Assembly: GCA_964549165.1 (NCBI GenBank)
Contig: CAZJUH010000001.1
Span: 74,566-138,565, forward strand
DNA: 64,000 nt
Reading direction: 5' to 3'
Origin: an uncultured Gammaproteobacteria bacterium
GTDB lineage: Bacteria > Patescibacteriota > Microgenomatia > UBA12405
The notes beneath the pieces were generated by a model. That model had not been told where the DNA came from. It did no database searches and saw nothing but the letters and a program-made list of their open reading frames with translations. A program made the position numbers and the translations under genes. The stretch's first letter is position 1. Each line of letters begins with the position of its first letter. This document shows positions 5,818 through 26,780 of the stretch, piece after piece.

Positions 5818-5834
5818 GTCAAGTACCCCATTTG

Positions 5835-9334: not shown

Positions 9335-10403
9335 ATTAACTGAAGAAGAGATTAATAAACTAAAGGTAAACCAAGGTGTCCGACCGCACCGAGTTAAATT
9401 TCAATTGACGAATGCTTGCAATGCAAGATGTAAGCATTGTAATTTGTACTTAATAAAGCCGGATGTGTTGTCCAAAGAAGTTGTTCTAAAAACTCTTGAA
9501 GATCTATCAGGACTAGGTGGTAAAGATGTCGATTTTACCGGAGGTGAGCCGACGACTCATCCAAATTTTGTCGAATTCATAAAGACTGCAACAGATTACG
9601 GACTCAAGGTAAAAGCAAATACCAACGGATTCTTGTTGACAGAAAAGTTAGCTGAGGGAATGATAAAAGCTGGTTTAAAAGAACTAGCAATATCTGTTGA
9701 CTCCCATAGCGCCGAGGAACATGACAGGCGCCGATGTTTACCCGGTGGTTGGCAGAAAGCCATTGACGGCATCAATTTTATCGATAAGTATCGAAATAAA
9801 TATAAGACAAGTACTAAGGTGATTCTTTATTCCATACTCTCTAATAAAAATTACAACCACGCTCCAGAAATAATTGATCTGAAAAAGATTGCTAATTTCG
9901 ACGAGATAAATTTTATCCCCATCAAAGACATTGAAAATAAAGAGGATTTTTTAACAAAAGAACAAATTCAAGATTATTACAAAAATATTAAACAGATATT
10001 GGTTGAAAAATACAATGAGTACAAATTCACTGGTATTTTTAGAACAATAGACGATCCGTTTGGTGTTATGGCCTCAAAAACCGAAGATAAATCAACCTCG
10101 GCCAAATACACCGAAGAAATTTACAAGAATCTTCCCTGTTATATCACTAATTTTTATTCATATATTATTTCTGACGGCTCAGTTGTTCAATGTTGTGTGG
10201 CGCCCCACCATCTTCGACCTGAATTTATCATGGGAAACATCAATCAACAAAGCTTTAAAGAAATTTGGAACTCTGACCGATATAATCAACTAAGACAAAC
10301 ACTTCTCAAACCAAATTTTGAAATTTGTAAATGTTGTAGTGGGCACCACACCGCTTTTAATCTTGATGTTCACCAGCAAATAAATGACTATGAAAAGGGT
10401 TGA
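9324..10403 (+). CDS. radical SAM protein with C-terminal SPASM/twitch-like Cys-rich domain
   Basis: CNARCKHC (CxxxCxxC) near the N-terminus; C-terminal CCVAPHH...CKCCSGHH cysteine cluster; start taken at ATG 9324 (MKIKLTEEE), overlapping the upstream gene. Confidence 0.8.
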   Translation: MKIKLTEEEINKLKVNQGVRPHRVKFQLTNACNARCKHCNLYLIKPDVLSKEVVLKTLEDLSGLGGKDVDFTGGEPTTHPNFVEFIKTATDYGLKVKANTNGFLLTEKLAEGMIKAGLKELAISVDSHSAEEHDRRRCLPGGWQKAIDGINFIDKYRNKYKTSTKVILYSILSNKNYNHAPEIIDLKKIANFDEINFIPIKDIENKEDFLTKEQIQDYYKNIKQILVEKYNEYKFTGIFRTIDDPFGVMASKTEDKSTSAKYTEEIYKNLPCYITNFYSYIISDGSVVQCCVAPHHLRPEFIMGNINQQSFKEIWNSDRYNQLRQTLLKPNFEICKCCSGHHTAFNLDVHQQINDYEKG

Positions 10404-11100
10404 AGATCTACTCATACGAGGTGAATTAACACCATTAAGGCGGGGATTAGTTAAGGAAACTTACCGTCACAAAGATGTTGTTATTGGACTGGTTCGGGTT
10501 GATAAATTGGATGTTCATGATCGTGACCCTCTAATGTTGCGTGATTCTGTCAGAAAATACGTTGACGGATTACATAGTGCTGGAGTACCAATAGTTGATG
10601 TTGTGGAAGTGGAACTTCAAGGATCTAATTTAGTGATGGTAACCAAGTTTATGCCTCAGTTCTTAGATTTAGCCATGAAGGCCAGTGAGGTAGATTTTGT
10701 CGCTGGGAGTAACCGAATGCTTTCAGATATTGCTAAAACTAAAGATACTCAAGTTGGGATTGATCCAACCCCCAAAAACTTTGCCTATAATCACGATCAA
10801 ATTTTATATGCAGATTTCTTTTATCCCATTACTCGGGAATATTCCGAGTGGAAAAAGAGTCGAATGACTTTAGATACTCCAAGACGTCGTTGGGTTCACT
10901 TTGCTCAAGATTACTTTTATTACCCCAGTGTCTATACTCATGCGATTTGTGATTTAGCCGATATCGGTATCCAAACTCGTGACGAGACGTTTCAACTAGT
11001 CACTGATTTTTGTCAGCATCGAGGTTTTGGTATTGACCTTAAATCTTCATTAGATTATTATCAGGAAACAAGGATTCGACATGGTCAACAAAAACACTAG
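10384..11100 (+). CDS. hypothetical protein with protein-kinase-like/aminoglycoside-phosphotransferase-like catalytic loop
   Basis: GIDPTPKNFAYNHDQILYADF resembles the H/DxxxxN...DF catalytic/DFG region of APH/choline-kinase-fold enzymes; weak. Confidence 0.35.
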   Translation: MTMKRVEDLLIRGELTPLRRGLVKETYRHKDVVIGLVRVDKLDVHDRDPLMLRDSVRKYVDGLHSAGVPIVDVVEVELQGSNLVMVTKFMPQFLDLAMKASEVDFVAGSNRMLSDIAKTKDTQVGIDPTPKNFAYNHDQILYADFFYPITREYSEWKKSRMTLDTPRRRWVHFAQDYFYYPSVYTHAICDLADIGIQTRDETFQLVTDFCQHRGFGIDLKSSLDYYQETRIRHGQQKH

Positions 11101-12241
11101 AACCCTATTCAAAAATACCACTGCTATTATCGGAGATGGAATGGAAGTGACTAATAATATAGATCTCTTAGTCATTGGTGACACTATTACTCAAATCGAT
11201 AAGGATGTCGATACATCTAATACTGAAATTTTAGATGGCGAACAATTTGTTTTATGTCCGTCATTTGTGAATGCACACACACATCTTGACGATAGTACTA
11301 TTACTGATATTGGCATTGGCCAAAGTCTTGAAGAGTTAGTATTTCCAAATGGTGTCAGAGAAAAAATTACTTCAGTTTCAAGGGACGATTTCAAATCTTC
11401 TATTAAAGATACTGTTCACAGAATAATTCTCGGTGGGACAGGAGTAATTTGCAGTTTTTGCGAAAGTGGAACTGAAGGTGTTGAGAAGGTTAAAGAATCA
11501 ATCAATCCTGATTTAAAGTCAATCTTGGTTGGTCGATTCAAAAGCAGGTTCCCGTACGAATCTAATGTTGAGAATCTACTAAAAATTGCCGATGGATTTG
11601 CTCCGGGTTTTATTAAGGATATCTCTGAAGAAGATTTGAAAAAAATATCTCAAAGGATTTTAACTGTTGGTGGTTTTATCGCAATGCACAGCCTTGAGTC
11701 AAAAGATCTTCCAGTAGAAAACTTTTATAAGACAGTCGATTATCTGAAACCAAAATTTTTGGTTCACCTAGTTCAAGCTAGTCAAAAAGAGATTAGCTAT
11801 CTTGCCGACAAAGATATCGGAGTTGTCTGTTGTCCCCGCGGTAATTCAATTACCGGAGTTGGCATTCCCCCAATTCTCCCGCTTTTAGAAAAGGGAATAA
11901 CCGTGGCTCTCGGGACTGATAATATTTTTCTTAATTCTCCTGATATGTTTCGGGAAATGGAGTTTACCTCAAGACTATTAAGAGGCATCACTCAAAATGC
12001 ATCAGCTACTGACTCAAAGACAATTCTTAAAATGGCAACAATAAATGGGGCCAAGATTCTCGGAATAGAGGGTAGCTATGGATCACTTTCTGTCGGTAAA
12101 AAAGCCAATATCATTGTATTCTCTAAGAAGTCAAGCAGTTTCATTCGATCTGCCGACATTGTTTCAACAATAGTTCATCGAGCTGGGGTAGACGATATTC
12201 ATGAGGTATATCTAAACGGGGATGTTTACAGCTCCAGGTGA
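11081..12241 (+). CDS. amidohydrolase-family metal-dependent hydrolase
   Basis: VNAHTHLDDS HxH metal-binding motif near the N-terminus, TIM-barrel amidohydrolase-like length and later His/Asp positions (HSLES, GTDN). Confidence 0.65.
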   Translation: MVNKNTRTLFKNTTAIIGDGMEVTNNIDLLVIGDTITQIDKDVDTSNTEILDGEQFVLCPSFVNAHTHLDDSTITDIGIGQSLEELVFPNGVREKITSVSRDDFKSSIKDTVHRIILGGTGVICSFCESGTEGVEKVKESINPDLKSILVGRFKSRFPYESNVENLLKIADGFAPGFIKDISEEDLKKISQRILTVGGFIAMHSLESKDLPVENFYKTVDYLKPKFLVHLVQASQKEISYLADKDIGVVCCPRGNSITGVGIPPILPLLEKGITVALGTDNIFLNSPDMFREMEFTSRLLRGITQNASATDSKTILKMATINGAKILGIEGSYGSLSVGKKANIIVFSKKSSSFIRSADIVSTIVHRAGVDDIHEVYLNGDVYSSR

Positions 12242-12813
12242 GATGTGTCGTTCCAAAATTTTACTTCAGCTTTGTCACCTTCAATTTCGAGTAGAGATAA
12301 AGCTCCACCAGTGGTGTGTTCCAATTTCATTCCAAAAAGAGAGTTAAGCCGACCAATGAAATGACCATGAGTGATGACTAATATATTTTCAAAACCTGAT
12401 TTTTCAATTAGTTCTTTAAATTCGGCGGCTCGACGTTTTACATCATTCTCACTCTCACCACCTTTACATTTGAAATCATCAGGATCAAGGCCACTACTAT
12501 CACGAACCGCATAATATTCCGTTGAAGGTTGGCCTTCAAACTCCAATCTGTTTATTTCTCGGACTAAGTCAGTAACAATCACTTTTTTTGGGTCAACTCT
12601 GAAGCCACCCTTAAAAATTTGATCCATGGTTTGCAATGTTCGAAAGAGACTACTACAATAAATCGCATCAATCTTGATACCATCTCTTACTAGTCTCTCT
12701 CCTAACTTTTTGGCATCCACCATTCCTTTGTCAGATAACCCGGTATAAGAAAAAGCGATGTATCCTTCGGCGTTACTAATAGACTCTCCGTGACGTGTAA
12801 GATATATTCTCAT
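12226..12813 (-). CDS. histidine phosphatase family protein (phosphoglycerate-mutase-like)
   Basis: IYLTRHGES RHG motif, later ITHGHFI histidine; convergent 16-bp overlap with the amidohydrolase gene. Confidence 0.75.
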   Translation of the reverse strand: MRIYLTRHGESISNAEGYIAFSYTGLSDKGMVDAKKLGERLVRDGIKIDAIYCSSLFRTLQTMDQIFKGGFRVDPKKVIVTDLVREINRLEFEGQPSTEYYAVRDSSGLDPDDFKCKGGESENDVKRRAAEFKELIEKSGFENILVITHGHFIGRLNSLFGMKLEHTTGGALSLLEIEGDKAEVKFWNDTSHLEL

Positions 12814-12868
12814 GAGTGATTATAACTTAATATAAAAAAACAATAAAATTGCTCGAACAATACACGAA

Positions 12869-12984
12869 GTGCGGAGCATGTGGGTCTGGGATGAAACTGT
12901 CTCTATAACACCCACATTGTCATTGTCTTATTTTTTATCAGCCTTTTGTAGCTAAATGAGACAAATGAGACACTATAAAAAAGG
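12869..12984 (+). repeat. copy C of the ~115-bp intergenic repeat
   Basis: aligns with copies A and B; immediately 3' of the minus-strand gene ending at 12986. Confidence 0.7.
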
Positions 12985-12985
12985 A

Positions 12986-13897
12986 CTACAACAGTTTATT
13001 GATTTCTAAGTCCCACCCATCTTTATGAATTAGTCGATCTTTACAAAGATTAGCATTGATTATCTCAGCTTTGGTTTTTTGAGACAACTCTTCCCAATTA
13101 TTTTCCAAAATATAGGTGGCATTTCCATAAAATGGGCTTTCAAGTACAAATAGATTTTTATTGGTAAAACCCATAATAATATAACCATGGAAACCTGCAT
13201 TTCCGACGGCAGTAAAATCAGGATGGTGTTTATTTATAAGTTCAAGACGATGTTCTAGATAAGAGCGATTTCCTTTTGGGGTCTCTTCAATAATCTTTTC
13301 AACCTCTTTTTTAAGAGATGACCATGGCATTTGTCCTTGTGGCAATATTGTCCAATTCAATCGTCTTGTTGGTGAAGCTACATCACCCATTTTTGGATCT
13401 AAAATCTGACATTCACCAAATATTTCCAAAAATAAATTTACTACATGTGTTACTTTGTCTTCATCACTAACATCAATTGTTGGACTAACAATTAGTTTTA
13501 TCCCATTTTGAATTGTTGATATTGATAATTCCACACTTGGTGGAACAATAAAAGTTCTCGGATATCTTTTATAAGGAACTTCAACAAATTTACTACGTTC
13601 AACCTGATAAGGACCGTGCCACTCTTGCCATGTCCATTCAGTAACACGCGATACTTCTTCCATTGGTTGATCTTTATGGATTAAATACTTACCCTCTGCA
13701 TTAAAGCTACTGACAGGACCGAATTGTGCTGACGGTAAAACTGTTTCTCCATTCTCAATTTTAGATGTAAAGCCTATTTTGCTGCTTAATTTTGAGTTTT
13801 CTGCGTCAACTGATACTCCAATAATAATATTTTTATATTTTGATAAAACTCCTTTAAAGGGTTTTAATGTTCTGATTCTTCTTTTTTTGATTAACAT
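12986..13897 (-). CDS. hypothetical protein, 303 aa, co-transcribed downstream of the Cas2/VapD-like gene
   Basis: no recognisable motifs; 12-bp spacing to the upstream gene. Confidence 0.4.
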   Translation of the reverse strand: MLIKKRRIRTLKPFKGVLSKYKNIIIGVSVDAENSKLSSKIGFTSKIENGETVLPSAQFGPVSSFNAEGKYLIHKDQPMEEVSRVTEWTWQEWHGPYQVERSKFVEVPYKRYPRTFIVPPSVELSISTIQNGIKLIVSPTIDVSDEDKVTHVVNLFLEIFGECQILDPKMGDVASPTRRLNWTILPQGQMPWSSLKKEVEKIIEETPKGNRSYLEHRLELINKHHPDFTAVGNAGFHGYIIMGFTNKNLFVLESPFYGNATYILENNWEELSQKTKAEIINANLCKDRLIHKDGWDLEINKLL

Positions 13898-13909: not shown

Positions 13910-14176
13910 TTATAATCTGGCGTTTAACCAGTCATGGGCACCAGTGATCATCCATGCGGAATAGCTATTTTTATACAATTGAGCAGTGAAGATATAATCA
14001 TTTGAATCGACCACTGTTCTTATTTGATCACTAATAGTATTGAGATCATAAGCGGTATCCAGAAACCACAAATTTTGTAATGGATGAAGAGTTTGACCTA
14101 AACTCATAATTTTTTTATAGAGAGCATCGTAATTTTGCCCTTCTTTCCTTAGATCGTATGTTATTATATAGACCAT
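13910..14176 (-). CDS. Cas2/VapD-like small protein (ferredoxin-like-fold endoribonuclease family)
   Basis: 88 aa; MVYIITYDL N-terminus (Cas2 MLVLVxYDI/VapD MYAIAFDL pattern with the conserved Asp), central LHPLQNLWFL (cf. Cas2 RVQYSVFEC), C-terminal IRTVVDSNDYIFTAQL (cf. Cas2 IVDSEDSIRVYxL); motif-level resemblance only. Confidence 0.45.
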   Translation of the reverse strand: MVYIITYDLRKEGQNYDALYKKIMSLGQTLHPLQNLWFLDTAYDLNTISDQIRTVVDSNDYIFTAQLYKNSYSAWMITGAHDWLNARL

Positions 14177-14287: not shown

Positions 14288-14656
14288 ATGATAAATAAAA
14301 TAGATTTAGGTTTTAGGATTGCTGAAAAAAGAAAAAGATTGGAAATGTCCCAATCACAATTAGGGGAAATGTTAGGTATTAGTCATGCGGCTGTATCTGA
14401 TATTGAAAGAGGGATAACTAATCTTAATGTTGAAGGAATATCTAAAATTGCTGATATTCTTAAAACAACATTTGAAGATCTTACTTTTATAAATGATTAC
14501 AGTTCTGCCACACAATCATTTAATTCATCGAATGGGATAAGTGTTTCTGGATATAGATTAGGAAAATACGCTAACAATAATGATATGGAAGAAGCAGATA
14601 AAAAAATTAAAGATAGATTGGCACAATTAAGAAAGGAGAAAAATGATTCACAGTAA
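14288..14656 (+). CDS. XRE-family HTH transcriptional regulator
   Basis: SQSQLGEMLGISHAAVSDIERG HTH_3 motif. Confidence 0.8.
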   Translation: MINKIDLGFRIAEKRKRLEMSQSQLGEMLGISHAAVSDIERGITNLNVEGISKIADILKTTFEDLTFINDYSSATQSFNSSNGISVSGYRLGKYANNNDMEEADKKIKDRLAQLRKEKNDSQ

Positions 14657-15149
14657 AGCTGCAAGAGAAAAAGCAGATAATATTATTGAAATGTATCATA
14701 TTGATGAAGCACCGGTCGATATTTTTGGAATTGCAGAAAAACTAGGTTTTGTGGTAGATAAAATTGAGTTACCCAATGAAATACCTGCAAAAATTGAGGC
14801 TCATGAAGATATTAAGGTCATTTTCATTAATAGTAAACATCCTTTAACAAAACAAAGATTCTCCGTTGGTCATGAACTTGGTCATTATCTGAGTGGGCAT
14901 GAAAATTTCAATGTCGATATTAGATCAATGGCAGATCCGGATAGAAAATATCTTAACTCTCAATATCAACAAGAATACGAAGCTGATGATTTTGCTGCAG
15001 AAATTTTAATGCCAAAATCAATTCTAAAAAAAGATTCCATGGAAAATAAACTTAGTCTAGCTGATTTGGTAAAGAAATACGAGGTAAGTGAACAAGCAAT
15101 GACCATTCAACTTGTTAATCTAAAATTACCCTTTAACAGTGAAAAGTAG
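14643..15149 (+). CDS. ImmA/IrrE-family metallopeptidase
   Basis: HELGHYLSGHE HEXXH motif in an ImmA-sized protein immediately downstream of, and overlapping, an XRE regulator gene. Confidence 0.8.
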   Translation: MIHSKAAREKADNIIEMYHIDEAPVDIFGIAEKLGFVVDKIELPNEIPAKIEAHEDIKVIFINSKHPLTKQRFSVGHELGHYLSGHENFNVDIRSMADPDRKYLNSQYQQEYEADDFAAEILMPKSILKKDSMENKLSLADLVKKYEVSEQAMTIQLVNLKLPFNSEK

Positions 15150-15151: not shown

Positions 15152-16234
15152 TCAGGATACAATTTTTACTAAATCATCCTCACTTTCGTAGCCCCTGATT
15201 CTACCTGTTAGAATTCCAAGTCTCTGACTGATTCCGTCACTCATTAATCGCCAGTTTGTATCTTCCAATGTTTTTTTAATCAATTTTTTTAAGTTATTTT
15301 GACTATCGTAGTCACTTTTTGAAGTATCTGATTCTTGTACAGAAAATGGAATTATTACATCTCTAGTAATTTCTGGTTTATCAAAGGAAAGTTCAATATA
15401 TTTTGCTTTTTCTAAGGTTTCTTTTAAAAGTTTTTGTAAATCAAAGACTTTTATTTTTTTTAAGGCTTTTGCTTTCTTATAACGTGGGTCAGCTTCCTTT
15501 GTTTTTCTTTCCTCTTCGTGTTTAGAATATAATTCTGACTGTATTTGATTTGAAACATACTCTTCCCCTTTTTCTTTACTTAAGCAAAATACTCCCCTAA
15601 AAGTTTCTAATAATTGTTTATCTTTTTCTTGTTTCCTTTTATATTCATCACTCTCAGCTTTCATATCCCAAACATCCTTGTTTTTATAACCACATTTGCA
15701 TGTTTCGATGGTAGTAATTACTTCACCTTTTCGTTGGCTATCTTCTTTTAATTCTTGATTACATTTAGGGCATGTGGGTCTTTTTGGTTTAAATTCTTCA
15801 CCATTATCAAAAACACCTCTTCCTTTTTTACAATTAGGACATCTGAAAAAGAATAATATGTTTGATGATTTTTCAGAAAGGTTATATAAGGTTTTGTCTT
15901 CAAACTCCATTGCCCAATTACAATCTGGGCAAAATATTGAACTTGGCTCTTTTGCATTGTCATATATTTCTTGTTCTATTCGATCCTTATCCATCCATTC
16001 TCTTATTGTTTTTTCCTTGTTTCGATATTCCTCACCTTTTTTATAATAGAGAGATATCTCTCCTAATCCTTCTACAAATCCTTTTGGATCTGCTAATTTA
16101 AAATCATTGATTTCTTCTCTATCTTTTTTAATCTTCTTTTTCCATATTTCAATAAAATCAAGGCAATTTTTAATAGTTAATAGATCATAAAGATCTTCAT
16201 AGTATTGTTTCTCTTTTATATAATTCATTAACAA
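15152..16234 (-). CDS. hypothetical protein with multiple CxxC zinc-ribbon motifs
   Basis: CPDCNW...CPNCKK...CPKCNQ...CKCGYK cysteine pairs; charged low-complexity regions; start overlaps the upstream gene by 7 bp. Confidence 0.4.
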   Translation of the reverse strand: MLMNYIKEKQYYEDLYDLLTIKNCLDFIEIWKKKIKKDREEINDFKLADPKGFVEGLGEISLYYKKGEEYRNKEKTIREWMDKDRIEQEIYDNAKEPSSIFCPDCNWAMEFEDKTLYNLSEKSSNILFFFRCPNCKKGRGVFDNGEEFKPKRPTCPKCNQELKEDSQRKGEVITTIETCKCGYKNKDVWDMKAESDEYKRKQEKDKQLLETFRGVFCLSKEKGEEYVSNQIQSELYSKHEEERKTKEADPRYKKAKALKKIKVFDLQKLLKETLEKAKYIELSFDKPEITRDVIIPFSVQESDTSKSDYDSQNNLKKLIKKTLEDTNWRLMSDGISQRLGILTGRIRGYESEDDLVKIVS

Positions 16235-16833
16235 TTAGCCTCTTCTGAATCTATTTCTTTTTGCGATTTAACAAATTTACCAGTGTCCATATCAAAACCT
16301 CTTACAAATTCAATTGAGTAGATACCGATACTATTAGCTGTTGAATCAACTGGTTGGTTTGATATCCTAGACAATTCATCAAATTTCTTATCATCAGTAG
16401 TAACCAAAACTGGTATCCAATTAATATAATTCCATTCTTTCTTTTTAACATCATAATGAGCTGGTAAAACCATAATATTATAAAACTGGTAAACATCATC
16501 CATCATTTTCATATATTCTTTTGATCTAAACAGATCATCAGTGGGAACAATATCTTTAGAATTCCAATATTCCTTTTTGAGTGGGAATCTTTTATTAAAA
16601 TTAATCTTAATAATAACCAACCCACTAACATAAATCGGGCCTTCTTTTAATTTAAGTAAATCTTTTCTTAATTTTTTAACTCTAGTTTGAAGAGATTTTA
16701 CTGTTGGATATATTTGAACTAGTATTTGAATATATCTTAAATTATCAGTTTTACCAACAAATATCACTCCCACATAAGCAGTATCTGGGAAATCCGGCTC
16801 TCGATAACAATACTTTTGGCTTTTCTTATCCAT
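16228..16833 (-). CDS. hypothetical protein, 201 aa
   Basis: ORF with no recognisable motifs; co-directional with, and between, the type IIG RM gene and the zinc-ribbon gene. Confidence 0.35.
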   Translation of the reverse strand: MDKKSQKYCYREPDFPDTAYVGVIFVGKTDNLRYIQILVQIYPTVKSLQTRVKKLRKDLLKLKEGPIYVSGLVIIKINFNKRFPLKKEYWNSKDIVPTDDLFRSKEYMKMMDDVYQFYNIMVLPAHYDVKKKEWNYINWIPVLVTTDDKKFDELSRISNQPVDSTANSIGIYSIEFVRGFDMDTGKFVKSQKEIDSEEANC

Positions 16834-17085
16834 GTTTTAACCAATATTAACATTTAAGGTAAAATTAAATTGAAATGAGTCCTTGGTTTAAAAAATGGTT
16901 ATGTAGAATAATTCTTTGGTATTCGGCCTTTTTTATAATTGCTGATATCTGGGGAGTGGATAATTTGAATCTGTTTATTATGGCCTTTTTTACTTTCTTT
17001 ATAATTGTCGTTCTCCGATTTGTAATAAGAATTTTAACAGAATTATTTAATCTCAGGCTAGAAATTTATCTACACAATTAAATTA

Positions 17086-19875
17086 TTAGGTATTTTCTAT
17101 AATTCCCTTTTCTTCTTCGTTTAATCCATACAATTTATAAACTTCTTTATCTATTTGTTTCTCTATTTCCGTAATTTTATTATTTAATTCAAAATATTTA
17201 TCTGAATTTTTAGAAATATTATTAACTTCTGTTTTAAAACTAATAATTTTATCGACTAGATTAATAATGTCCTTCTGTTGTTCTTTTTCTGCTTTATATA
17301 TTGGCACTTTTAATAAAGGACCTTTGTCTATTTGGAGCAAATCTCCTAATCTTTTTCCCTTATTTATCAACCAATAAAAAGCCAATTTTGAATTTAGCAA
17401 CCCAACTAAATATTTTAAGTTTATTCTATCGGTTTTAATAAAATTTAAAGCCCTTGATCCATAATACTCATTTTCAGTGTAGAAAAAACTTGGTAATGCT
17501 ACTCTTGCACCACCAATAATTTTACTTCCTTTTGTAAAAAACCGTTCATCTCTTTCTCGATGTAGGTAGTAATATGGTTTTGTTGGAGTTTTATATTTTA
17601 TTTTGGAATCTTTTAGCAAAGTTTCGTATTTTTTAAAATGGTTATGTAGTGATGGAAAATCTTCTATTGATTTTCCATTAAAATTTTTAGCGGATAAATA
17701 AATGATATATTTATTTGTTTGCGCTCCATTATATTTTTGTGCTGAAGTATAAAACGATTTAATATATTCACGTTCTTGTAATCCAAAATCTTTTAATTCA
17801 TTGATAATAAAACATTTATCAGGTGCACCAACAATACCTTGTGCTACTTCTTTTTCTTCCAACTGGAAATTTGCCTTTGATAGTATTTTTTCTAAAATCG
17901 AATTATTTTCCTTGTTTGAGAATATTATGTTTTGACCTAATAGTTTATTTTTTTCTATTTGAATTTTTATTTTGCTCTGTTGAATTTTGTTAATTATTTC
18001 TAGTTCAGTAGAACTACTGTTTTCAATTTTTAGATATTCAACATTGTATTTTTCTCGTGGTTTACATTTTTTAAAAACAAAAATCATCGTTTGTATCCCA
18101 GCTTCATTAAATACTTTGTAATCTCCGAAATCTATAAAGCTTAATATTTCTCCCTCATTTAATATTTTGTCTCTAAAAATACTAGCACCTGCATTGGAAA
18201 TCCAATTATTTGGTGCAATAAAACTTAAATATCCACCGTCACGAAGAAGATCAATTGCTTTACAGGCAAACAGTGTCCATAAATCCATTTTTCCTTGATA
18301 ATATGGGCTATCGTGTAAATCATTAAATGCCGCTTTGTTTACAAATTCTTTAATATATGGTGGATTTCCGACAATTACGTCGAATCCTGGATTTTCCCGC
18401 TTAAAAATATATTCAAATTCTTTTTTATATTCAAAAGCCTTATCAGTTGTTTTTTTATCTTCAATTAAAGAATTTCCTACACAAATGTTCTTGCTTATTA
18501 TTGGTAATTTGAAGTTTGGGACGACTGATTGTAGTAAAAGATTAAGTCGAGCAATTTCAATAGCTTGTTCGTCTAGATCAACTCCATAAATGTTTTCTTG
18601 TAATATTCGATATTTTCTAATTGCGGCAATATCTTTATCATTAATATCTTGATTATTTTCTTTTCTTAAATATTGATCTAAATATTCAAAACTATTTATT
18701 AAAAAAGAGCCACTACCACATGCAGGATCAAGAATTTTAATCGATTGTTTCTCGTTCAAATTATTCATTTCTGATAATTTTTTCCCAATTGTATTACTGA
18801 CTATATAATCAACAATGTAACTTGGTGTGTAATATATTCCCTGTTTTTTTCTTTTTCCCTCATCTTTTTTCCCTTTTTGAAGGTATCCCAAATATTGTTC
18901 ATAGACTTTTCCTAATACATCGGCATTTATTGCATCAAATCGATAACTAACCTGTTGTTTTTCATTGCGGTAAAGCTCAGGAATAATTTGTTTGAAAGGA
19001 TTACCCTCAGTATCGAGCTTTTCGCAATAATGTTCATGGAACAAATTACTGTTATAAGTTTGGTCAAATTTTCTAAAGAGTGGAATTAATAGTTCAATAA
19101 AATTATATGGTTTAAATCCATTGCTTTGCCATCTTTGAAATGTTTGCCATAAAAATTTATCTTCTATTCCTTTATCTTCAATCACACGAATAAAAATCAA
19201 TCTATCTAAAATTCTTTGGACAGATTCATTTAACAATCTCAAATCAACACCTGTATTCCATTGTTTTAGATTATTAGTTAATGTGTCTCGCCATCTGACT
19301 AGATCAGCTGCCAGTAATTCATTTACTTTTATTCTTTTTGAGCCAATACCAAAACTTGATAAAGTAGTATCAAGTAAATTTTGGTTAAATGATTCTTTTG
19401 AAAGAAGCCATAGGGTATCAAATTTATCTAAATATTCTGTATATTTAAAATCAAGCCTCTCTTTTGGTCGACCGATATTTTCTTCTGAATTAAAAAGTTT
19501 TAATCCTTCAAAGTCAGTTAATACAACCCATGGAACACCCATATTCCAACCGTATTCAACCGTTTGATTAGCCCATTGTTCTTTGTCTAGATTTTCCGAC
19601 ATTGATTTTGCTTCTAATAAAAACTGTGTTAGATGATTGACTCTAAAAGCATAATCAACTCGACCACAAATAGATGGATCTTCTTCAACAATATCTTCAT
19701 GAATATCCCAACCAAGAGCTTCAAACATTGGAAGAATAAAGTTTTTTCTTGTGTTTGCTTCGTTATAACTTTTCTTTTCTAAGGGTGTTAATCTCTTATA
19801 TTTTTCGATTAATTCAGAAATTTTTATCTTTGCTTCGTCTTTAGACATTTGTTTTTGATTATCTATTGGTGACAT
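17086..19875 (-). CDS. type IIG restriction-modification enzyme (MmeI/Eco57I-like: N-terminal PD-(D/E)xK nuclease + gamma-class N6-adenine methyltransferase + C-terminal specificity region)
   Basis: N-terminal GRVDYAFRV...LLEAKSM (HsdR-N/Mrr-like D..EAK nuclease motif), motif I ILDPACGSGSFL, motif IV VGNPPYIKE; 929 aa. Confidence 0.75.
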   Translation of the reverse strand: MSPIDNQKQMSKDEAKIKISELIEKYKRLTPLEKKSYNEANTRKNFILPMFEALGWDIHEDIVEEDPSICGRVDYAFRVNHLTQFLLEAKSMSENLDKEQWANQTVEYGWNMGVPWVVLTDFEGLKLFNSEENIGRPKERLDFKYTEYLDKFDTLWLLSKESFNQNLLDTTLSSFGIGSKRIKVNELLAADLVRWRDTLTNNLKQWNTGVDLRLLNESVQRILDRLIFIRVIEDKGIEDKFLWQTFQRWQSNGFKPYNFIELLIPLFRKFDQTYNSNLFHEHYCEKLDTEGNPFKQIIPELYRNEKQQVSYRFDAINADVLGKVYEQYLGYLQKGKKDEGKRKKQGIYYTPSYIVDYIVSNTIGKKLSEMNNLNEKQSIKILDPACGSGSFLINSFEYLDQYLRKENNQDINDKDIAAIRKYRILQENIYGVDLDEQAIEIARLNLLLQSVVPNFKLPIISKNICVGNSLIEDKKTTDKAFEYKKEFEYIFKRENPGFDVIVGNPPYIKEFVNKAAFNDLHDSPYYQGKMDLWTLFACKAIDLLRDGGYLSFIAPNNWISNAGASIFRDKILNEGEILSFIDFGDYKVFNEAGIQTMIFVFKKCKPREKYNVEYLKIENSSSTELEIINKIQQSKIKIQIEKNKLLGQNIIFSNKENNSILEKILSKANFQLEEKEVAQGIVGAPDKCFIINELKDFGLQEREYIKSFYTSAQKYNGAQTNKYIIYLSAKNFNGKSIEDFPSLHNHFKKYETLLKDSKIKYKTPTKPYYYLHRERDERFFTKGSKIIGGARVALPSFFYTENEYYGSRALNFIKTDRINLKYLVGLLNSKLAFYWLINKGKRLGDLLQIDKGPLLKVPIYKAEKEQQKDIINLVDKIISFKTEVNNISKNSDKYFELNNKITEIEKQIDKEVYKLYGLNEEEKGIIENT

Positions 19876-20090: not shown

Positions 20091-21446
20091 ATGATCGATA
20101 AAAATACAAACATTAATATTGAGTATATTGATATCAATTTACTCAATCCTTCCGCTTATAATCCTCGAAAACACGATAAGGAATCGGAAGAACAACTAAA
20201 ACAAAGTATTGAACGCTTTGGATTAGTTGATCCCCTAATTGTTAATTCTTCACCTGAAAGAAACAATATTGTGATTGGAGGCCACTTTAGATTAAAAGTG
20301 GCAAAGCAACTTGGTATTGATAAAGTGCCAGTTGTTTATGTCGATATTCCCGATATTGAAAAAGAAAAAGAATTAAATCTCCGATTAAATAGGAACACTG
20401 GTGAATTCGACTTCAAATTATTAGCCGAGTTTGACCAGAAATTCTTAATTGATGTCGGTTTCAGTAGTGAGGAACTCGACGATATTTTTCCAACTGAAGA
20501 TACTCCAGAAAACTTTGACTTGGAAAAAGCATTAGCAAAAGCTGGAGTAAATGAAGTTAAAACCAAAGAAGGTGACATTTGGCTTTTGGGAGATTCTAAA
20601 CTTATGGTTGGTGATTCAACTAAAGAGGAAGACATTTTAAAACTAATGGAAAAGGAAAAAGCCGATATGTGTTTTACTGATCCACCTTACATTCTTAATT
20701 ATCTAAAAGATAAAAAGAAAGATGGAGAACCAACAAAAGGCTTTGGTCAAAAACAAAACCGAAAATATATCGGGACTGATTCTCTCCCTGACAATTTTAC
20801 TGAATTATGGATGGCTAATATTGCCAAAATTCAGAAAGAAAGTTTTTCAATTATCGTTTATGAAAATTGGAAAAATATTAGAATCATTTGGGGAGAGATG
20901 GAAAAGTATTGGCGAGTAAAAAATATGCTCGTTTGGCATTTAAATAATCGTAGCCAAGGCTTTTCAGCAAAGTACAAATTCTTCTCAAAACACGACATTG
21001 CTATGGTGGGATCGTCCCAAAATGCCGATATTGAATTTAATATGGAGGAAGAAAAAGATGGATTACAAGAAGAATATGAAACCGCACTTTTTGCTATTCA
21101 AGGACATCCACAGTGGGAAGGTTATGAAAAAGGCAAAAAGTATCAGCCGACTGATTTTATCGAACATAAAGCGTCGGATGAAAAAAGTTCGGGCCAGGGA
21201 GTAATTTTTGGAACTAAGCCATTAGAAATATTAATCCCCTACATTAAAGTATTAACCAAAAGGGATAATTTAATTATCGAACCGTTTGGTGGTAGTGGTA
21301 GTACTTTGATCGCAGCAGTAAAAATGAAAAGACGCTGTTTTATTATGGAAAAATGTCCAGCTTATGCTGAGGTCATCAAAAAACGCTGGGAAAATCTAAC
21401 TGGACTTAAAGGAGTTTTGTATGAAGAGCAAAAAGGAAGTAATTAA
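20091..21446 (+). CDS. ParB-like nuclease domain fused to a DNA N4/N6 methyltransferase (beta class)
   Basis: N-terminal ParB/Srx-like segment (NPRKHD...GGHFRL), motif IV CFTDPPY preceding motif I EPFGGSGST. Confidence 0.8.
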   Translation: MIDKNTNINIEYIDINLLNPSAYNPRKHDKESEEQLKQSIERFGLVDPLIVNSSPERNNIVIGGHFRLKVAKQLGIDKVPVVYVDIPDIEKEKELNLRLNRNTGEFDFKLLAEFDQKFLIDVGFSSEELDDIFPTEDTPENFDLEKALAKAGVNEVKTKEGDIWLLGDSKLMVGDSTKEEDILKLMEKEKADMCFTDPPYILNYLKDKKKDGEPTKGFGQKQNRKYIGTDSLPDNFTELWMANIAKIQKESFSIIVYENWKNIRIIWGEMEKYWRVKNMLVWHLNNRSQGFSAKYKFFSKHDIAMVGSSQNADIEFNMEEEKDGLQEEYETALFAIQGHPQWEGYEKGKKYQPTDFIEHKASDEKSSGQGVIFGTKPLEILIPYIKVLTKRDNLIIEPFGGSGSTLIAAVKMKRRCFIMEKCPAYAEVIKKRWENLTGLKGVLYEEQKGSN

Positions 21447-21951
21447 GTGCTTAAAAAAGAACTCTATAATTCAAATAGCTTGTCAGCAAGCGGATATTAG
21501 TCGCGCCACCTATTATCGGTGGCGCGATGAAGATAAAAACTTTAAAAAAGAAACTGACCAAGCCAAAAAAGAAGGATTTGAAGTGATTAATGATTTAGCA
21601 GAAACAGGCTTAATAAAAGCAATTAAAGATGGTAACGTCACGGCTATTTTTTATCGACTTAATCATTGTCACCCAGATTATTCTGACAAGAGGTTGTATT
21701 TGTCTAACTCTGACCAAAAACAATTGATTGATGATATTAGTACAAGCAATATAAAAAATATATTGGAAATTCTAATGGAAAAACTTATAAAAGGAGAAAT
21801 TTCAAAATCTGCTGCTAACCAAGTCATATTAATGATTAATAAAATTTATCCACAAGAGGTTAATTCGTTACGTCAGCAGGAAATAAGGAAAACATTAAAT
21901 GAGATGTCAGATCTAATTAATGAGTTAAGTCCAAATTCAAATAGAAAATAG
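21421..21951 (+). CDS. HTH-containing phage-like protein (terminase-small-subunit/transposase-HTH-like N-terminus)
   Basis: IACQQADISRATYYRWRDEDKNF HTH pattern; overlaps the upstream methyltransferase gene. Confidence 0.35.
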   Translation: MKSKKEVIKCLKKNSIIQIACQQADISRATYYRWRDEDKNFKKETDQAKKEGFEVINDLAETGLIKAIKDGNVTAIFYRLNHCHPDYSDKRLYLSNSDQKQLIDDISTSNIKNILEILMEKLIKGEISKSAANQVILMINKIYPQEVNSLRQQEIRKTLNEMSDLINELSPNSNRK

Positions 21952-22308: not shown

Positions 22309-22785
22309 ATGGAAAAAAAGAAAAATTGGTTTATGAAACACAAGATACTTACGATTATTTTGGCATTAGTAGTATTTTCAATTTTTAAAGGTGCAGCTGA
22401 AAGCGGAAAGGCTGCTAGAGTTAGTGAAAATCAATCTAAATCAGAAATAAAAACTGTTTTTGATGTTCCATTATTAGTTGGAAAAAATGTGGATGAAGTA
22501 ATCGCAACAATTGGACAGCCAAGAGAAAATAGTTTGCCAACCGAAGAACAATCAAAATTAACCAGTGACTGGAGTATTGAATTTGATAAAGAGGGACAGA
22601 TATTATTAGTTGAATATAATCTCAAGACAAAGATTGTTAAAGATTTATTTATCAGCGGTGATAATAAAGAAGATTTATTAAAAATCGGCAATTTGAAAGA
22701 AAATGCTGATAATTACGCTTTGAATTTTGTTAAACAACAGAATGATCCGACAAAAATAACTGGAGTGACAATTACCAAGAAATAA
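22309..22785 (+). CDS. hypothetical secreted protein
   Basis: N-terminal signal/TM segment; followed by a terminator hairpin. Confidence 0.4.
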   Translation: MEKKKNWFMKHKILTIILALVVFSIFKGAAESGKAARVSENQSKSEIKTVFDVPLLVGKNVDEVIATIGQPRENSLPTEEQSKLTSDWSIEFDKEGQILLVEYNLKTKIVKDLFISGDNKEDLLKIGNLKENADNYALNFVKQQNDPTKITGVTITKK

Positions 22786-22846: not shown

Positions 22847-23380
22847 ATGAATATCCAATCATGGTTGATAATAGTAGTTCTTGCATTTGTGGTAATTTAC
22901 CAATTTGTTAAATATTCTAATTTAGAAAAAAGAGCTTACGAAATAAAAGATGCTTATTTAAATTTAGCTATCAAAAAGAAATTAATAAATAGAAGAAAGT
23001 TTTTGCGATATGACGAAAATGAATTATATAAAACCCTAATTAATATCGCTGGCGGTAATTTTATTGTTATTCCTCAAGTTCATCTATGTGATATAGCTGA
23101 GGTTAAAACTGGATATAACGATCACGATAACTTATATTACGAACTCAAAAGAATAATTTACGATTACGCTATTTTTGACAAAGAATTTAATCCTTTAGTA
23201 CTTATTGAACTAAATGGAAAATCACACTTCTTTCAAGACAATAGAATAAATAGAGATGCTATTGCAGAAAATAATGCCAAAAATTTAGATCTACCTCTTA
23301 TTCCAATAAAAAAAGAAGATCGTTTTAATGAAAAACTTATAACAGAGAAGCTTTCACCTTATTTAAAACAAATCATCTAA
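22847..23380 (+). CDS. DUF2726-like protein (restriction-endonuclease/PD-(D/E)xK-like fold) with N-terminal TM anchor
   Basis: IVIPQVHLCDI ... IYDYAIFDKEFNPLVLIELNGKSH resembles the D...(D/E)xK core of DUF2726/NERD-like nuclease-fold proteins. Confidence 0.45.
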   Translation: MNIQSWLIIVVLAFVVIYQFVKYSNLEKRAYEIKDAYLNLAIKKKLINRRKFLRYDENELYKTLINIAGGNFIVIPQVHLCDIAEVKTGYNDHDNLYYELKRIIYDYAIFDKEFNPLVLIELNGKSHFFQDNRINRDAIAENNAKNLDLPLIPIKKEDRFNEKLITEKLSPYLKQII

Positions 23381-23414: not shown

Positions 23415-24755
23415 ATGAATAATAAAGAAGGTGGAAAGATACAGGAAAATGAACTAATCAAATATTGTCTTTATGCTCGAAAATCATCAGAATCTGATGA
23501 ACGACAAGCAATGTCGATCGAGTCTCAAATTAATGAGATGAAAACAATGGCAGAAAGAGAAAATTTGGTTATTAAGGAAATTAGACAGGAAAGTCATTCA
23601 GCTAAATCATCAGGGCTGAGACCAGTTTTTAATAAACTTTTGATTGATATCAGAAATGGAGAATTTAATGCACTACTAACTTGGGCACCTGATCGATTAA
23701 GCAGAAATGCAGGAGACTTAGGAACCTTAGTAGATTTGATGGATCAGGGAAAATTAAAAACTATTCGAACTTTTTCTCAATCATTTTCTAATAATCCAAA
23801 TGAGAAATTCTTATTAATGATTCTCTGTTCTCAGGCAAAACTGGAAAATGATAACCGAGGAATAAATGTCAGAAGAGGCATGAGAGCAAAGTGTGAGGCT
23901 GGATGGAGACCTAATATGGCACCGCTTGGATATTTAAACATAATGAGTTACAACAGAATTAGTTTTGTAGAAATTGATAGTGAAAGAGCACCAATAATTA
24001 AACAGATGTTTCAACGAGTCGGAGAAGAAGGACATAGTGGAAGAACAATTAAGAACTGGCTCGACAGAATCAAATTTACCACCCGAAGTGGAAAGCCACT
24101 AGCCTTGAGTAAGGTTTATACAACATTAAAAAATCCATTTTATTATGGAGAGTTTGAATTCGGTGGCAAGATTTATAAAGGCAAGCATGAACCGTTAATA
24201 GACAGGGCATTGTTCGATAAAGTTCAAAGACAGTTAATAGTTCCAGAAAAAGAATGGAATAAAAAAGTATTCCCTTTTAGAAACCTATGTGTCTGCGGGA
24301 GTTGTGGAGAAAAAGTAACTGCTGAAGAAAAGTATAAAAAAAGTAAATATGGTGAGGTAAGAAAATATGTTTATTATCATTGCGGGCGACATATAAATTA
24401 TGATTGTGACGAACCTTATATTACCGAGGAAGATTTAATTCAACAGCTAGTTATTCATATTGATGAAATAAGGTTACACGAGGTAGAACTCGCTCAATAT
24501 TTAAAACAAGATATTGATAAATTCCATAGGTTAAGAACAGAAGTTTTAAACCAGGAAATTTTAAGCGGAAAATTAGTTGAATTAGAATACGATGCTTTTA
24601 ATCACGTCGACAAAGATATGGCAAAAGAATATTTGATTTATATTCTTAAATTTGGAACAGCAGAGGAAAGAATAAAAGTGATGTCGGCAATAAAAACGAG
24701 ATTTATATTGCACAATAAGGAACTAACAATAAGAATTGATAATAGAAAAATATAA
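23415..24755 (+). CDS. large serine recombinase (resolvase catalytic domain + recombinase domain + Cys zinc ribbon)
   Basis: N-terminal YARKSSESDERQAMSIESQ with catalytic Ser, central recombinase region, CVCGSCGEK...YHCGRH zinc-ribbon cysteines, C-terminal coiled coil; 446 aa. Confidence 0.8.
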   Translation: MNNKEGGKIQENELIKYCLYARKSSESDERQAMSIESQINEMKTMAERENLVIKEIRQESHSAKSSGLRPVFNKLLIDIRNGEFNALLTWAPDRLSRNAGDLGTLVDLMDQGKLKTIRTFSQSFSNNPNEKFLLMILCSQAKLENDNRGINVRRGMRAKCEAGWRPNMAPLGYLNIMSYNRISFVEIDSERAPIIKQMFQRVGEEGHSGRTIKNWLDRIKFTTRSGKPLALSKVYTTLKNPFYYGEFEFGGKIYKGKHEPLIDRALFDKVQRQLIVPEKEWNKKVFPFRNLCVCGSCGEKVTAEEKYKKSKYGEVRKYVYYHCGRHINYDCDEPYITEEDLIQQLVIHIDEIRLHEVELAQYLKQDIDKFHRLRTEVLNQEILSGKLVELEYDAFNHVDKDMAKEYLIYILKFGTAEERIKVMSAIKTRFILHNKELTIRIDNRKI

Positions 24756-24772: not shown

Positions 24773-26473
24773 TTATACCGTCAATAATGGTATTCTGGTA
24801 ACTAAAATTTTATTAATATTCATAATATTTTTATTAATATTTTCCTTGGTTTCCATATCAATATTTTTCTTGAAATCTTTTTTTTCTTTTTTAGAATAAA
24901 AAATATAGGTAATAGTCTTTTTTAAATCAGATAAATTGGCAAGTTTTTTTAATCTATCACTATCATTTTTAGAAAACATTCCTTCTAATAAAATTCTGTT
25001 TTCGTTTTTATCACAGTACTGAATCCAATTCTCTGATTCTTTATTTCCAAAGAATTTTTTATATTTTTCAATTGCTTTGTCGCCAGCATTATCTCCATCA
25101 AAAACAGCCGTATATCTTTTAGAAGTTCCTATGGCAATGCTAATTAAATATTCATTTTGTTCTGCACCAAATCCAGGTAAAATTACAATATTTTCTGGTA
25201 AAATCATTTTCCAAAAATAAAAATCGGTTATTCCTTCAAAAACTATAACTTTTTTACTTAATGTACTATTAACCGATATTTTTGTTCTTAAAGCATTATA
25301 AAGTGTGGTCATAGCTCCTTGGTTTCTTTTACCTTTTGCCTCAGATAAAGGTACTAAATTGATTTGTCTGTCACTTTTATTTGCAATTTTTATTTTATTA
25401 ATATTAATTATTTCTGGATCAAGTAAAAACTCAGAATGTGTGGAAAAAATAACAGGGTGATCAACGGACAAGTCTTTTATTGCTTTTAATAAAATACTTT
25501 GGGCACTGTTATGTAAGTATGAACCCGGCTCATCAAATAAATATATAAATTTTTCCTGAGATCTAGCCCCATAACATTTTTTAGCACTAAAATTAAAAAA
25601 CCAAATAAAACCTAAGCTTCTTTCACTGAGTTTCATCGAAATTGAATGCTTTTGTTTATTATCATCTTCGAAATTTTCAAAAACATTAATTTTTATTGAC
25701 ATTTTATTTTGTGTATCTTGTAACAATCTGATTTCTATGTTTTCTAATTTTTCTTCACCAACTTCATCGTCTCTTAAATGCATTTTAATCCAATCATCTA
25801 TCATGTCTTTTGTAGTTTCTTTATTTATTTCTGTTAAATAAGTATCTTTAGTATTATCATCATCTTCAGTTAAAAATTCTTTTAAGGAATATCCTGCTTT
25901 TAAAAACATATTTTCTATTATTATTTGGTGTTCATTTAGAACATAGTCAGGATTATTAATATAATCTTGATCAAAATCTACATGATCGTTAAATTTATTC
26001 TCTAAAAAACTGTCAAAATAAAATATTCTTGGTAATCTATTGATTATATCTATACAAAATTTTTCGATTACAGGATCTTCTTCTTCATTAATATGGTAAT
26101 TAATACTCTCACCATCTTGATTTTTTCGAAAATATCTTTTAATAACTAGATTATCTGTTTTTATTAGTGTTAATAACTTTTGCTTCTCTTCTTCTAAATA
26201 ATTAACGATAATATCTTCTATTTCTGATTGTTTGATTGAAATTTCAGAGGTTATACAAAATTCTTTTTCTTGAGGTTTATATCTATTATTAAATTTCCAA
26301 CCTCTTTGAGCAGCCATACTATCGTTTCTGTGATCAAATCTAGCAATAGCTTCAAGAACAGATGTTTTTCCAGACTCATTTACTCCAATTATTGGTACTG
26401 GGTCAGAACCAATAGAAATATTAGAGTTTTTAATTGCTTTATAACTTTCTATATTAAATCTTATATATTCCAT
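24773..26473 (-). CDS. OLD-family ATP-dependent endonuclease (ABC-ATPase + TOPRIM)
   Basis: Walker A GVNESGKTS at the N-terminus, ABC-like middle (LFDEPGSYLH), C-terminal Toprim-like VIVFEGITDFYF ... DGDNAGD. Confidence 0.75.
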   Translation of the reverse strand: MEYIRFNIESYKAIKNSNISIGSDPVPIIGVNESGKTSVLEAIARFDHRNDSMAAQRGWKFNNRYKPQEKEFCITSEISIKQSEIEDIIVNYLEEEKQKLLTLIKTDNLVIKRYFRKNQDGESINYHINEEEDPVIEKFCIDIINRLPRIFYFDSFLENKFNDHVDFDQDYINNPDYVLNEHQIIIENMFLKAGYSLKEFLTEDDDNTKDTYLTEINKETTKDMIDDWIKMHLRDDEVGEEKLENIEIRLLQDTQNKMSIKINVFENFEDDNKQKHSISMKLSERSLGFIWFFNFSAKKCYGARSQEKFIYLFDEPGSYLHNSAQSILLKAIKDLSVDHPVIFSTHSEFLLDPEIININKIKIANKSDRQINLVPLSEAKGKRNQGAMTTLYNALRTKISVNSTLSKKVIVFEGITDFYFWKMILPENIVILPGFGAEQNEYLISIAIGTSKRYTAVFDGDNAGDKAIEKYKKFFGNKESENWIQYCDKNENRILLEGMFSKNDSDRLKKLANLSDLKKTITYIFYSKKEKKDFKKNIDMETKENINKNIMNINKILVTRIPLLTV

Positions 26474-26641: not shown

Positions 26642-26726
26642 GCGGAAGGGGGGGGAGTCGAACCCCCATGCCCCTTACGGGACGCGGGTTTAGCAAACCC
26701 GTGCCTTACCATTCGGCGCACCCTTC
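26642..26726 (-). tRNA. tRNA-Ser (anticodon GCU), type II with long variable arm
   Basis: manual fold: acceptor GGAAGGG/CCCTTCC, anticodon stem CGGGT/ACCCG with loop TTGCTAA, long variable arm, T-arm GGGGG-TTCGACT-CCCCC. Confidence 0.8.
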
Positions 26727-26780
26727 CAAAAGACTTCACAAGTATATCAAATTTAAAGCAAATGCTTTATTATTATTTCA

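Follow-up and report, generated by a model that had tools for sequence, protein, structure and literature searches.

The DNA described here is a window of 64,000 nucleotides (nt) from contig CAZJUH010000001.1 of the NCBI GenBank assembly GCA_964549165.1 (positions 74,566 to 138,565 of the forward strand), deposited as an uncultured Gammaproteobacteria bacterium and placed by GTDB in the Patescibacteriota (Microgenomatia; UBA12405). Three genes on its minus strand are the subject of this analysis. They encode a type IIG restriction-modification enzyme of 929 amino acids (aa), a 201-aa protein (p201) and a 358-aa zinc-ribbon protein (ZnR). An initial annotation of this DNA had placed the three in one operon and proposed that the two smaller proteins serve the enzyme as accessory subunits for specificity or regulation, or else form an independent two-gene defense module. 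Our comparison of related loci points to another arrangement, which we regard as the probable one: the three genes belong to separate units within an island, in which the IIG enzyme is autonomous cargo while ZnR, together with a conserved non-coding element of about 115 nt (EL), is part of the backbone. The restriction enzyme is routine and the interest of the locus lies in the adjoining ZnR gene. Judged by its sequence neighborhoods, ZnR appears to be a mobile, conserved marker of hypervariable, defense-rich regions in bacteria of the candidate phyla radiation (CPR).

The 929-aa protein is predicted to be a complete single-chain type IIG enzyme of the Eco57I type. It carries the N-terminal D..EAK nuclease motif and the gamma-class NPPY methyltransferase first described for it: a PD-(D/E)xK-type motif at D73...E88-A-K90, the DPACGSG motif I at residue 383 and NPPY at residue 504, with motif I before NPPY in the order of the gamma-class N6-adenine methyltransferases. 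Its Pfam matches are Eco57I (2.7e-38, 132 bits), N6_Mtase (9.9e-29) and MmeI_Mtase (1.4e-14, 54.3 bits), and the PADLOC profile REase_MTase_IIG covers residues 13-925 (1.9e-103); together these bear out the single-chain type IIG identity. Two further Pfam models stayed below their cut-offs, HSDR_N at E 0.0044 with 17.3 bits vs 25.1 bits, and TaqI_C, which was narrowly missed with 25.7 bits vs 26.5 bits. A TaqI_C-like target-recognition domain is thus putative at the C-terminus. The best relative in the PDB is the CamA methyltransferase, which aligns with residues 338-882, the DNA-recognition part of CamA included. The "MmeI/Eco57I architecture" of the initial annotation stands for the type IIG class and for Eco57I, the strongest match, but not in the strict sense of MmeI. 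The MmeI-specific models of Pfam are MmeI_N, MmeI_hel, MmeI_TRD and MmeI_C. No Pfam match to these N, helical, target-recognition or C domains was found in the 929-aa enzyme at E<=0.01, and no MmeI chain in the PDB was matched at E<=1e-3, so that the protein resembles MmeI only loosely. The 90%-identity cluster of the enzyme is a singleton that holds the window copy alone. The 7.5-kb Psychrobacter plasmid pA18BP1 carries a homolog with 35% identity over 98% coverage, and all its other genes are rep or mob genes. Across the loci compared, no neighbor is conserved. Because this full-length homolog is the only cargo gene of pA18BP1, an enzyme of this type probably works alone, which supports the view that the window enzyme would act without a separate partner protein. 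The enzyme itself is a further member of an already known enzyme class.

All three open reading frames (ORFs) are co-directional, as initially stated, and are not products of chance, since homologs of each exist elsewhere. The ZnR frame can be opened at a TTG, giving 360 aa. Two codons past this TTG is an ATG with GAAGAGG ahead of it, which gives a 358-aa ZnR and a 1-nt overlap (TAATG) with the p201 stop. The overlap reported between the two genes is therefore real, but its length of 7 bp applies only from the TTG. The stop/start junction, TGTTAATG, keeps its overlap in the window and in the related loci L001, L098, L100 and L128 (L numbers denote the loci compared), and the p201 and ZnR genes appear from this junction to be a translationally coupled pair. 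The two ORFs were rightly described as tightly coupled and without an assigned function. The three-gene operon was not upheld. A gap of 252 bp separates the IIG stop from the p201 start, and most of it is filled by a 68-aa hydrophobic ORF on the opposite strand. The corresponding place in L013 holds a 71-aa ORF with 73.5% protein identity to it, and no match to the window ORF was found in Pfam, PADLOC or PHROG. No terminator was predicted in the gap; promoter-like sites were fewer than in shuffled sequence and none fell in the gap. Because the gap holds a conserved opposite-strand ORF, a single operon of three genes is not shown.

The neighborhoods of ZnR were compared in 95 loci, taking as much as 8 kb on either side of the gene where the contig was long enough; ORFs were called and the 1,525 resulting proteins were clustered. 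A BLAST match resembling a IIG enzyme or an N6-methyltransferase lies within 8 kb of ZnR in 22 loci and is missing from the other 73. These matches have 22-30% identity and are found anywhere from seven genes upstream to three genes downstream. None of the 95 loci contains an ortholog of the 929-aa enzyme, the best match being 30% identical and confined to the methyltransferase domain. Close relatives of the window ZnR do without the enzyme. In L012, where ZnR is 92% identical, neither the IIG enzyme nor p201 is present, and in L129-L131 (ZnR at least 90% identical) the upstream genes are instead a DUF2779 protein, 257-aa and 708-aa ORFs and FtsK-like genes. Locus L013 has 99.8% nucleotide identity to window positions 8923-12908 and hence stems from the same species, with its insertion at the same site. 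At the DNA level, however, the ZnR gene of L013 is only 73% identical, and an FtsK-like gene comes before it. Because ZnR differs in this way at the same insertion site, it travels on exchanged DNA. In the 73 loci without such a match, ZnR occurs apart from restriction-modification genes of this kind, an outcome that the initial annotation had named as refuting its proposal, and distant relatives of p201 occupy ordinary chromosomal loci. On this comparison, ZnR and p201 are very probably not accessory to the IIG enzyme.

ZnR contains three CxxC pairs (residues 100/103, 130/133 and 153/156) and one CxC (177/179), not the four CxxC pairs first counted. These cysteines are invariant or nearly so among 104 homologs, and are predicted to form two C4 zinc ribbons. 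The structure model, with a predicted local distance difference test score (pLDDT) of 88, comprises a helical hairpin (7-91), the zinc ribbons (~100-188), further helices at 189-254 and, at the C-terminus, a ferredoxin-like domain (261-357), which holds the most conserved motif of the family, TNWRLMS...RLG...G...GYE. No match to ZnR was found in Pfam, PADLOC (E<=0.01), PHROGs or NCBIfam, and structural searches returned no homolog of known function. Against PDB profiles, the protein shows a sub-threshold zinc-ribbon similarity to Rpb9/TFIIS only (E 0.013). Homologs of ZnR number in the hundreds, and their annotation is limited to faint zinc-ribbon matches. Species-representative genomes contain 346 encoding stretches, which by record title belong mostly to Patescibacteria of many CPR lineages and in a few cases to Omnitrophota and others; two such genomes have two copies each. 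Viral contigs contain six ZnR loci only. Longer variants exist as well. Those of ~697 aa in L022, L024 and L060 (gene start 8001) have a C-terminal P-loop domain that is kinase-like (AAA_33/AAA_18), and those of ~545 aa (e.g. P0072) have an extra C-terminal zinc-ribbon region.

The p201 protein is less widespread beside ZnR. It occurs in 4 of the 95 ZnR loci by BLAST, and a hidden Markov model built from 150+ family members adds no relatives among the ZnR neighbors. Its structure model is poor (pLDDT 65) and searches with this model were uninformative; Pfam, PADLOC (E<=0.01), PHROGs, NCBIfam and PDB profile searches gave no match. The wider family comprises 235 representative clusters. Members with at least 40% identity always lie zero to one gene upstream of ZnR (the window, L001, L015, L055, L098, L100 and L128), whereas relatives at 24-27% identity are found in ordinary chromosomal loci, next to genes for major facilitator superfamily transporters, metallo-beta-lactamases and MarR-type proteins, with no ZnR or restriction-modification gene near. 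For a search of loci, the broad alignment of p201 proved too divergent, and the close alignment retrieved five metagenome loci only and none from viruses. The position of p201 holds an FtsK-like ATPase in L010, L011 and L013 and unrelated genes elsewhere. A 299-aa gene upstream of ZnR in L002 was tested as a possible p201 relative and is unrelated.

What lies around ZnR in the other loci is varied and rich in defense genes. The gene directly upstream shares the strand of ZnR in 68 of the 95 loci (72%), and in 44 of these 68 (65%) it lies within 10 nt. Background values for these loci are 67% for same-strand neighbors and 50% for spacing within 10 nt (n=828 pairs), so that the coupling of ZnR to its upstream gene only modestly exceeds what is usual in such compact genomes. 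BLAST sorted the 55 upstream genes with tight spacing into 42 unrelated clusters, and their products range in length from 54 to 1207 aa. Among them are GajB (5e-167), a CBASS cyclase, a SAVED protein, an effector, HsdR and a KAP NTPase, and further SF1 helicases, a caspase, a trypsin-like protease and large proteins without a domain match. Downstream of ZnR are found LexA-like S24 repressors (cluster c3), HTH_3 proteins, SMODS/CBASS genes and a Shedu SduA-like protein. Recurrent genes in the 8-kb flanks are those for a ParB-methyltransferase (27 loci, cluster c1), a helix-turn-helix (HTH) protein like the small terminase TerS (22, cluster c4), a LexA-like repressor (22), the large terminase TerL (13) and a serine recombinase (8, by jackhmmer), together with a PDDEXK_1 nuclease and an FtsK-like ATPase. 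The ParB-methyltransferase and ZnR genes are direct divergent neighbors in L057, L070, L072 and L076. In the window, the space between them is filled by the IIG enzyme, the 68-aa ORF and p201, in L001 by a DpnII-type restriction-modification system and other genes, and in L014 and L098 by other cargo. Such a slot, vacant in four loci and occupied by differing genes in the rest of those named, is what one would expect of a cargo hotspot, and the 929-aa enzyme is read as cargo of this island.

Some upstream genes are of interest in their own right. Directly upstream of ZnR, a 1129-aa protein in L005 (4607-7996, +4 nt from ZnR) and a 1207-aa protein in L008/L009 (4385-8008, -14 nt; both distances as given by the ORF calls made here) have no Pfam domain and are candidates for novel defense genes. 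A recurring upstream block encodes proteins of ~257 aa, ~710 aa and sometimes ~205 aa (cluster c18), often with FtsK-like or PDDEXK_1 genes (L128 3476-6996, L012 534-3453, L129 2680-5572). The L128 copies of the ~257/~710-aa block gave no PADLOC match when tested. This block may serve the element for transfer or replication.

The second conserved feature is EL, recognized as a non-coding element of ~115 nt when related loci were compared by blastn and alignment. Its consensus is GCGGAGCA...CTGTCTCTATAACACC...CTGTCTTATTTTATCAG...TAAATGAGACAAATGAGACACTATAAAAAAGG, and it carries four TGTCTC/GAGACA half-sites (TGAGACA-type). A structured RNA was dropped from consideration, as EL matches no Rfam family and shows no covariation. 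Searches with nhmmer found 44 matches in 37 loci. Every match is on the opposite strand from ZnR, and 43 of the 44 are downstream of it, 29 nt to ~7 kb from the ZnR stop. EL also coincides with sequence breakpoints. L129 and L131 are 100.000% identical over 11,264 nt, up to a point of divergence that falls precisely on the outer EL end, while the identity between the window and L013 stops ~40 nt inside the EL copy named EL3. The serine recombinase gene ends at or overlaps the outer EL end in L046 and L048 and is 93 nt away from it in L005. In L071, a full and a partial EL bracket a unit 11.4 kb long, in which the genes are those for the serine recombinase, TerL, TerS, the ParB-methyltransferase, an HTH protein, ZnR and a Shedu-like protein. 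In viral contigs, the core pattern of EL gave 19 matches, 18 of them by chance, with L115 alone real. EL is linked to ZnR physically and directionally. It behaves as an element end or as an att-associated site, an identity that is putative and comes from its sequence context.

The window contains three full EL copies in one orientation, which may reflect tandem accretion of EL-bounded segments. The transporter flank of EL1 also adjoins EL in L001 and L014. Between EL1 and EL2 is a minus-strand segment (4801-7701) with an IS3-family transposase gene (rve, 5835-6692), a truncated radical-SAM ORF (5312-5737) and two further ORFs, and it has the look of a decayed insertion. Between EL2 and EL3 (8036-12813) are genes for two radical-SAM proteins, one of which has a SPASM domain, for an amidohydrolase and for a histidine phosphatase, along with a weak, sub-threshold match to DUF6206. 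This stretch has 99.8% identity to L013 and may be a peptide-modification cluster.

From EL3 onward the window contains a roughly 13.7-kb integrative island of low guanine plus cytosine (GC) content, at about 12.87-26.64 kb (Table 1). To judge by the names of homologs, the genome that carries it is probably one of the Candidatus Shapirobacteria (Patescibacteria). The GC content is 26-32% across ~12.9-26.6 kb vs ~36% in the flanks. The region is called an integrative island because it has a serine recombinase gene, a switch of HTH and M78 genes, an atypical GC content, an edge at a tRNA-Ser gene and another at EL, and because L013 carries a different island at the same site. The mobile, defense-related setting first proposed for the locus is borne out by these features and by an OLD-family nuclease gene. 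This gene has no adjoining gene for a GajB-like helicase and sits between the serine recombinase and tRNA-Ser genes; by its domains it is probably a second defense-type cargo gene of the island. The HTH_3 and M78 genes overlap by 14 nt and are convergent with ZnR, with two bases between the stop codons. In other ZnR loci this position is held by a LexA-like S24 repressor. The 303-aa gene at the EL3 side was compared with the 290-aa gene that follows ZnR in L001/L010, and the two are not the same. The island includes serine recombinase, ParB-methyltransferase and TerS-like genes and no large terminase or structural genes. In gene content, its layout and that of L071 appear satellite-like.

Table 1. 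Features of the window discussed in the text, in order of position.
Feature	Position	Strand	Evidence and remarks
EL1	4607-4717	+	nhmmer 8.2e-33; follows HlyD/ABC/FtsX transporter genes
EL2	7819-7936	+	nhmmer 3.5e-34; between 3.1-kb and 4.9-kb segments
EL3	12868-12987	+	blastn, alignment, nhmmer; ZnR-side edge of low-GC island
303-aa gene	12986-13897	-	No homolog in any library
88-aa gene	13910-14176	-	phrog_1090; cluster c15; recurrent downstream of ZnR
HTH_3 repressor gene	14288-14656	+	Pfam HTH_3 4.8e-14; PADLOC capH 1.2e-8
M78/IrrE-type peptidase gene	14643-15149	+	Pfam Peptidase_M78 3.3e-19; PADLOC capP 1.3e-28
ZnR, 358 aa from ATG	15152-16228	-	Homologs, cysteines, model, neighborhoods; 360 aa from TTG at 16234 (15152-16234)
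p201, 201 aa	16228-16833	-	Optional gene upstream of ZnR in one island sub-lineage
68-aa hydrophobic ORF	16875-17081	+	ORF list; fills most of the IIG-p201 gap
Type IIG restriction-modification gene, 929 aa	17086-19875	-	Pfam, PADLOC, motif positions
ParB-N/N6_N4 DNA methyltransferase	20091-21446	+	Pfam, PHROGs; cluster c1; divergent from IIG gene
Small-terminase-like HTH protein	21421-21951	+	Pfam, PHROGs; cluster c4; divergent from IIG gene
158-aa ORF	22309-22785	+	
DUF2726 protein	22847-23380	+	Pfam
Large serine recombinase	23415-24755	+	Pfam Resolvase, Recombinase, Zn_ribbon_recom; PHROG integrase 3.4e-63
OLD-family ATPase/Toprim nuclease	24773-26473	-	Pfam AAA_15, Toprim_2; PADLOC AriA 5.4e-18, Old 8.1e-18, GajA 2.1e-11
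tRNA-Ser	26642-26727	-	Low-GC region ends here

The separate units may be pictured as follows. From what is known of its family, the IIG enzyme would read an asymmetric site through its target-recognition domain, mark host DNA with its gamma-class methyltransferase and cut unmodified DNA at a distance with its PD-(D/E)xK domain, and it would need no partner. The p201 and ZnR proteins would be translated together and be part of the island and not of the enzyme system, with p201 as an optional, lineage-specific companion. Varied cargo, often whole known defense systems, would be carried on both sides of ZnR, with EL downstream, convergent and near the breakpoints. ZnR would be a non-catalytic zinc-ribbon factor that binds nucleic acid or protein in the service of the element's own life cycle. 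Candidate roles for it are regulation, or an aid to integration and excision by the serine recombinase at EL. That ZnR acts for the life cycle of the element, and does so at EL, is a tentative suggestion to which we would give less than even chances. We are equally guarded about the broadest form of the proposal, in which ZnR and EL mark a family of integrative elements that is widespread among CPR bacteria and not previously described. Some members would be satellite-like, with a serine recombinase, TerS with or without TerL and a ParB-methyltransferase and with no structural genes. The cargo slots of the family would be a reservoir of defense systems, both known and unknown, and ZnR would act at EL as a new kind of zinc-ribbon DNA-binding factor, e.g. 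as a factor for recombination directionality or maintenance.

Several observations weigh against the division into cargo and backbone. The 95 loci were gathered by way of ZnR itself, and its universality among them is partly circular. The other presumed backbone features are each found in a minority of these loci only (ParB-methyltransferase in 27, TerL in 13, serine recombinase in 8 and EL in 37). In the window, no convincing direct repeats were found to flank the island, its right-hand boundary has GC content and the tRNA gene as its only basis, and the three EL copies are not explained by a simple single integration. Upstream spacing is slightly tighter than background and is compatible with co-transcription of ZnR with cargo, and read-through transcription from the IIG gene into p201-ZnR is possible. 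ZnR has no sequence or fold homolog that points to a function, and its enrichment beside defense genes is equally expected of a defense gene.

These points bear differently on the rival explanations. We give next to no credence to p201 and ZnR as specificity or regulatory subunits of the IIG enzyme within a three-gene operon, the role first suggested for them. The genes are co-directional within 4.7 kb, no terminator is predicted between the enzyme and p201, and 22 of the 95 loci do have an N6-methyltransferase or IIG-like match within 8 kb. Those matches are, however, distant and scattered and include no enzyme ortholog, 73 loci have none, and ZnR copies of at least 90% identity occur without the enzyme or p201. 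The conserved opposite-strand ORF interrupts the supposed operon. The enzyme already contains a methyltransferase domain and putative nuclease and target-recognition domains of its own, and its plasmid-borne homolog stands alone.

An independent anti-phage module made of p201 and ZnR, placed beside the enzyme, has in its favor that the pair is coupled by a junction kept in five loci, the close p201 subfamily keeps to ZnR, and the neighborhood is rich in defense genes. As a two-gene system it nevertheless fits poorly and we find it quite improbable: 91 of the 95 ZnR loci are without p201, FtsK-like or unrelated genes take its position, distant p201 relatives are in ordinary chromosomal loci, and no effector or enzymatic domain was recognized in either protein. 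The initial annotation was right about the coupling and the setting of the pair. ZnR might instead be defense-related by itself, either as a stand-alone sensor or as a regulator of cargo with a role like that of BrxR/CapW, the upstream genes being its clients. The strong association with diverse defense systems on both sides of ZnR, the frequent tight same-strand spacing of its upstream neighbors (72% and 65%) and the C-terminal extensions of some ZnR proteins, by an extra zinc ribbon at ~545 aa or AAA_33 at ~697 aa, all speak for this; modular fusions are common in defense proteins. We still consider such a role unlikely. The upstream genes include the last genes of self-sufficient systems (Gabija, CBASS, type I restriction-modification), strand and spacing exceed the compact-genome background (67% and 50%) only modestly, and ZnR has no PADLOC match. 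Its fixed orientation to EL and the breakpoints at EL point to the structure of an element and not to cargo.

The division into cargo and backbone can be set beside several known systems. The window enzyme shares with type IIG enzymes of the Eco57I/MmeI type (IIL) a chain of ~930 aa, a PD-(D/E)xK motif, a gamma-class methyltransferase, a putative C-terminal target-recognition domain and a full-length IIG profile. It differs in matching the MmeI models of Pfam in the methyltransferase core only, and in having an orphan methyltransferase, CamA, as its nearest solved relative. It shares with PglX of the BREX system an Eco57I-type methyltransferase core, reflected in matches to NCBIfam BREX_1_MTaseX (117.8 bits) and PADLOC PglX (4.7e-30). 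The 117.8 bits are, however, far under the 500-bit cut-off, and the window enzyme has an N-terminal nuclease motif, which PglX is without. No PglZ, BrxC or BrxL domain was seen in any ORF of the island. The overlapping, adjacent HTH_3 and M78 genes at 14288-15149 resemble ImmR/ImmA of ICEBs1 and phage phi105 and CapH/CapP, which are associated with CBASS. The pair in the window differs in being convergent with ZnR and not divergent from a defense operon, and it is swapped for a LexA-like S24 repressor in related islands.

Temperate phages and their satellites carry hotspots for defense systems, such as the P2/P4 hotspots and the cargo regions of phage-inducible chromosomal islands (PICIs). In these, as in the ZnR islands, backbone genes flank a slot that is empty or variably filled, here the one between the ParB-methyltransferase and ZnR genes. 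The ZnR islands also share with them an integrase, a repressor module, a small terminase and few or no structural genes. They differ from P2/P4 and PICIs in having CPR hosts and a large serine recombinase as integrase; many ZnR loci, moreover, are without a terminase or recombinase gene within 8 kb. To our knowledge, ZnR and the ~115-nt EL have no counterpart in described satellites, and in the literature that could be searched neither the ZnR family nor EL nor islands of this sort in CPR bacteria were found to be described.

Cargo hotspots in integrative elements and satellites are already known from other bacteria, and the locus in the window is a caution that adjacency of genes inside an island is not the same as functional partnership. 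CPR bacteria are often described as defense-poor. ZnR and EL offer a search handle for the regions where these ultra-small bacteria gather anti-phage systems. Such a marker helps to locate defense islands in CPR metagenomes and to find new candidates among the many immediate ZnR neighbors without a Pfam domain. ZnR and EL may also define the first integrative or satellite-like family of mobile elements of the CPR lineage.

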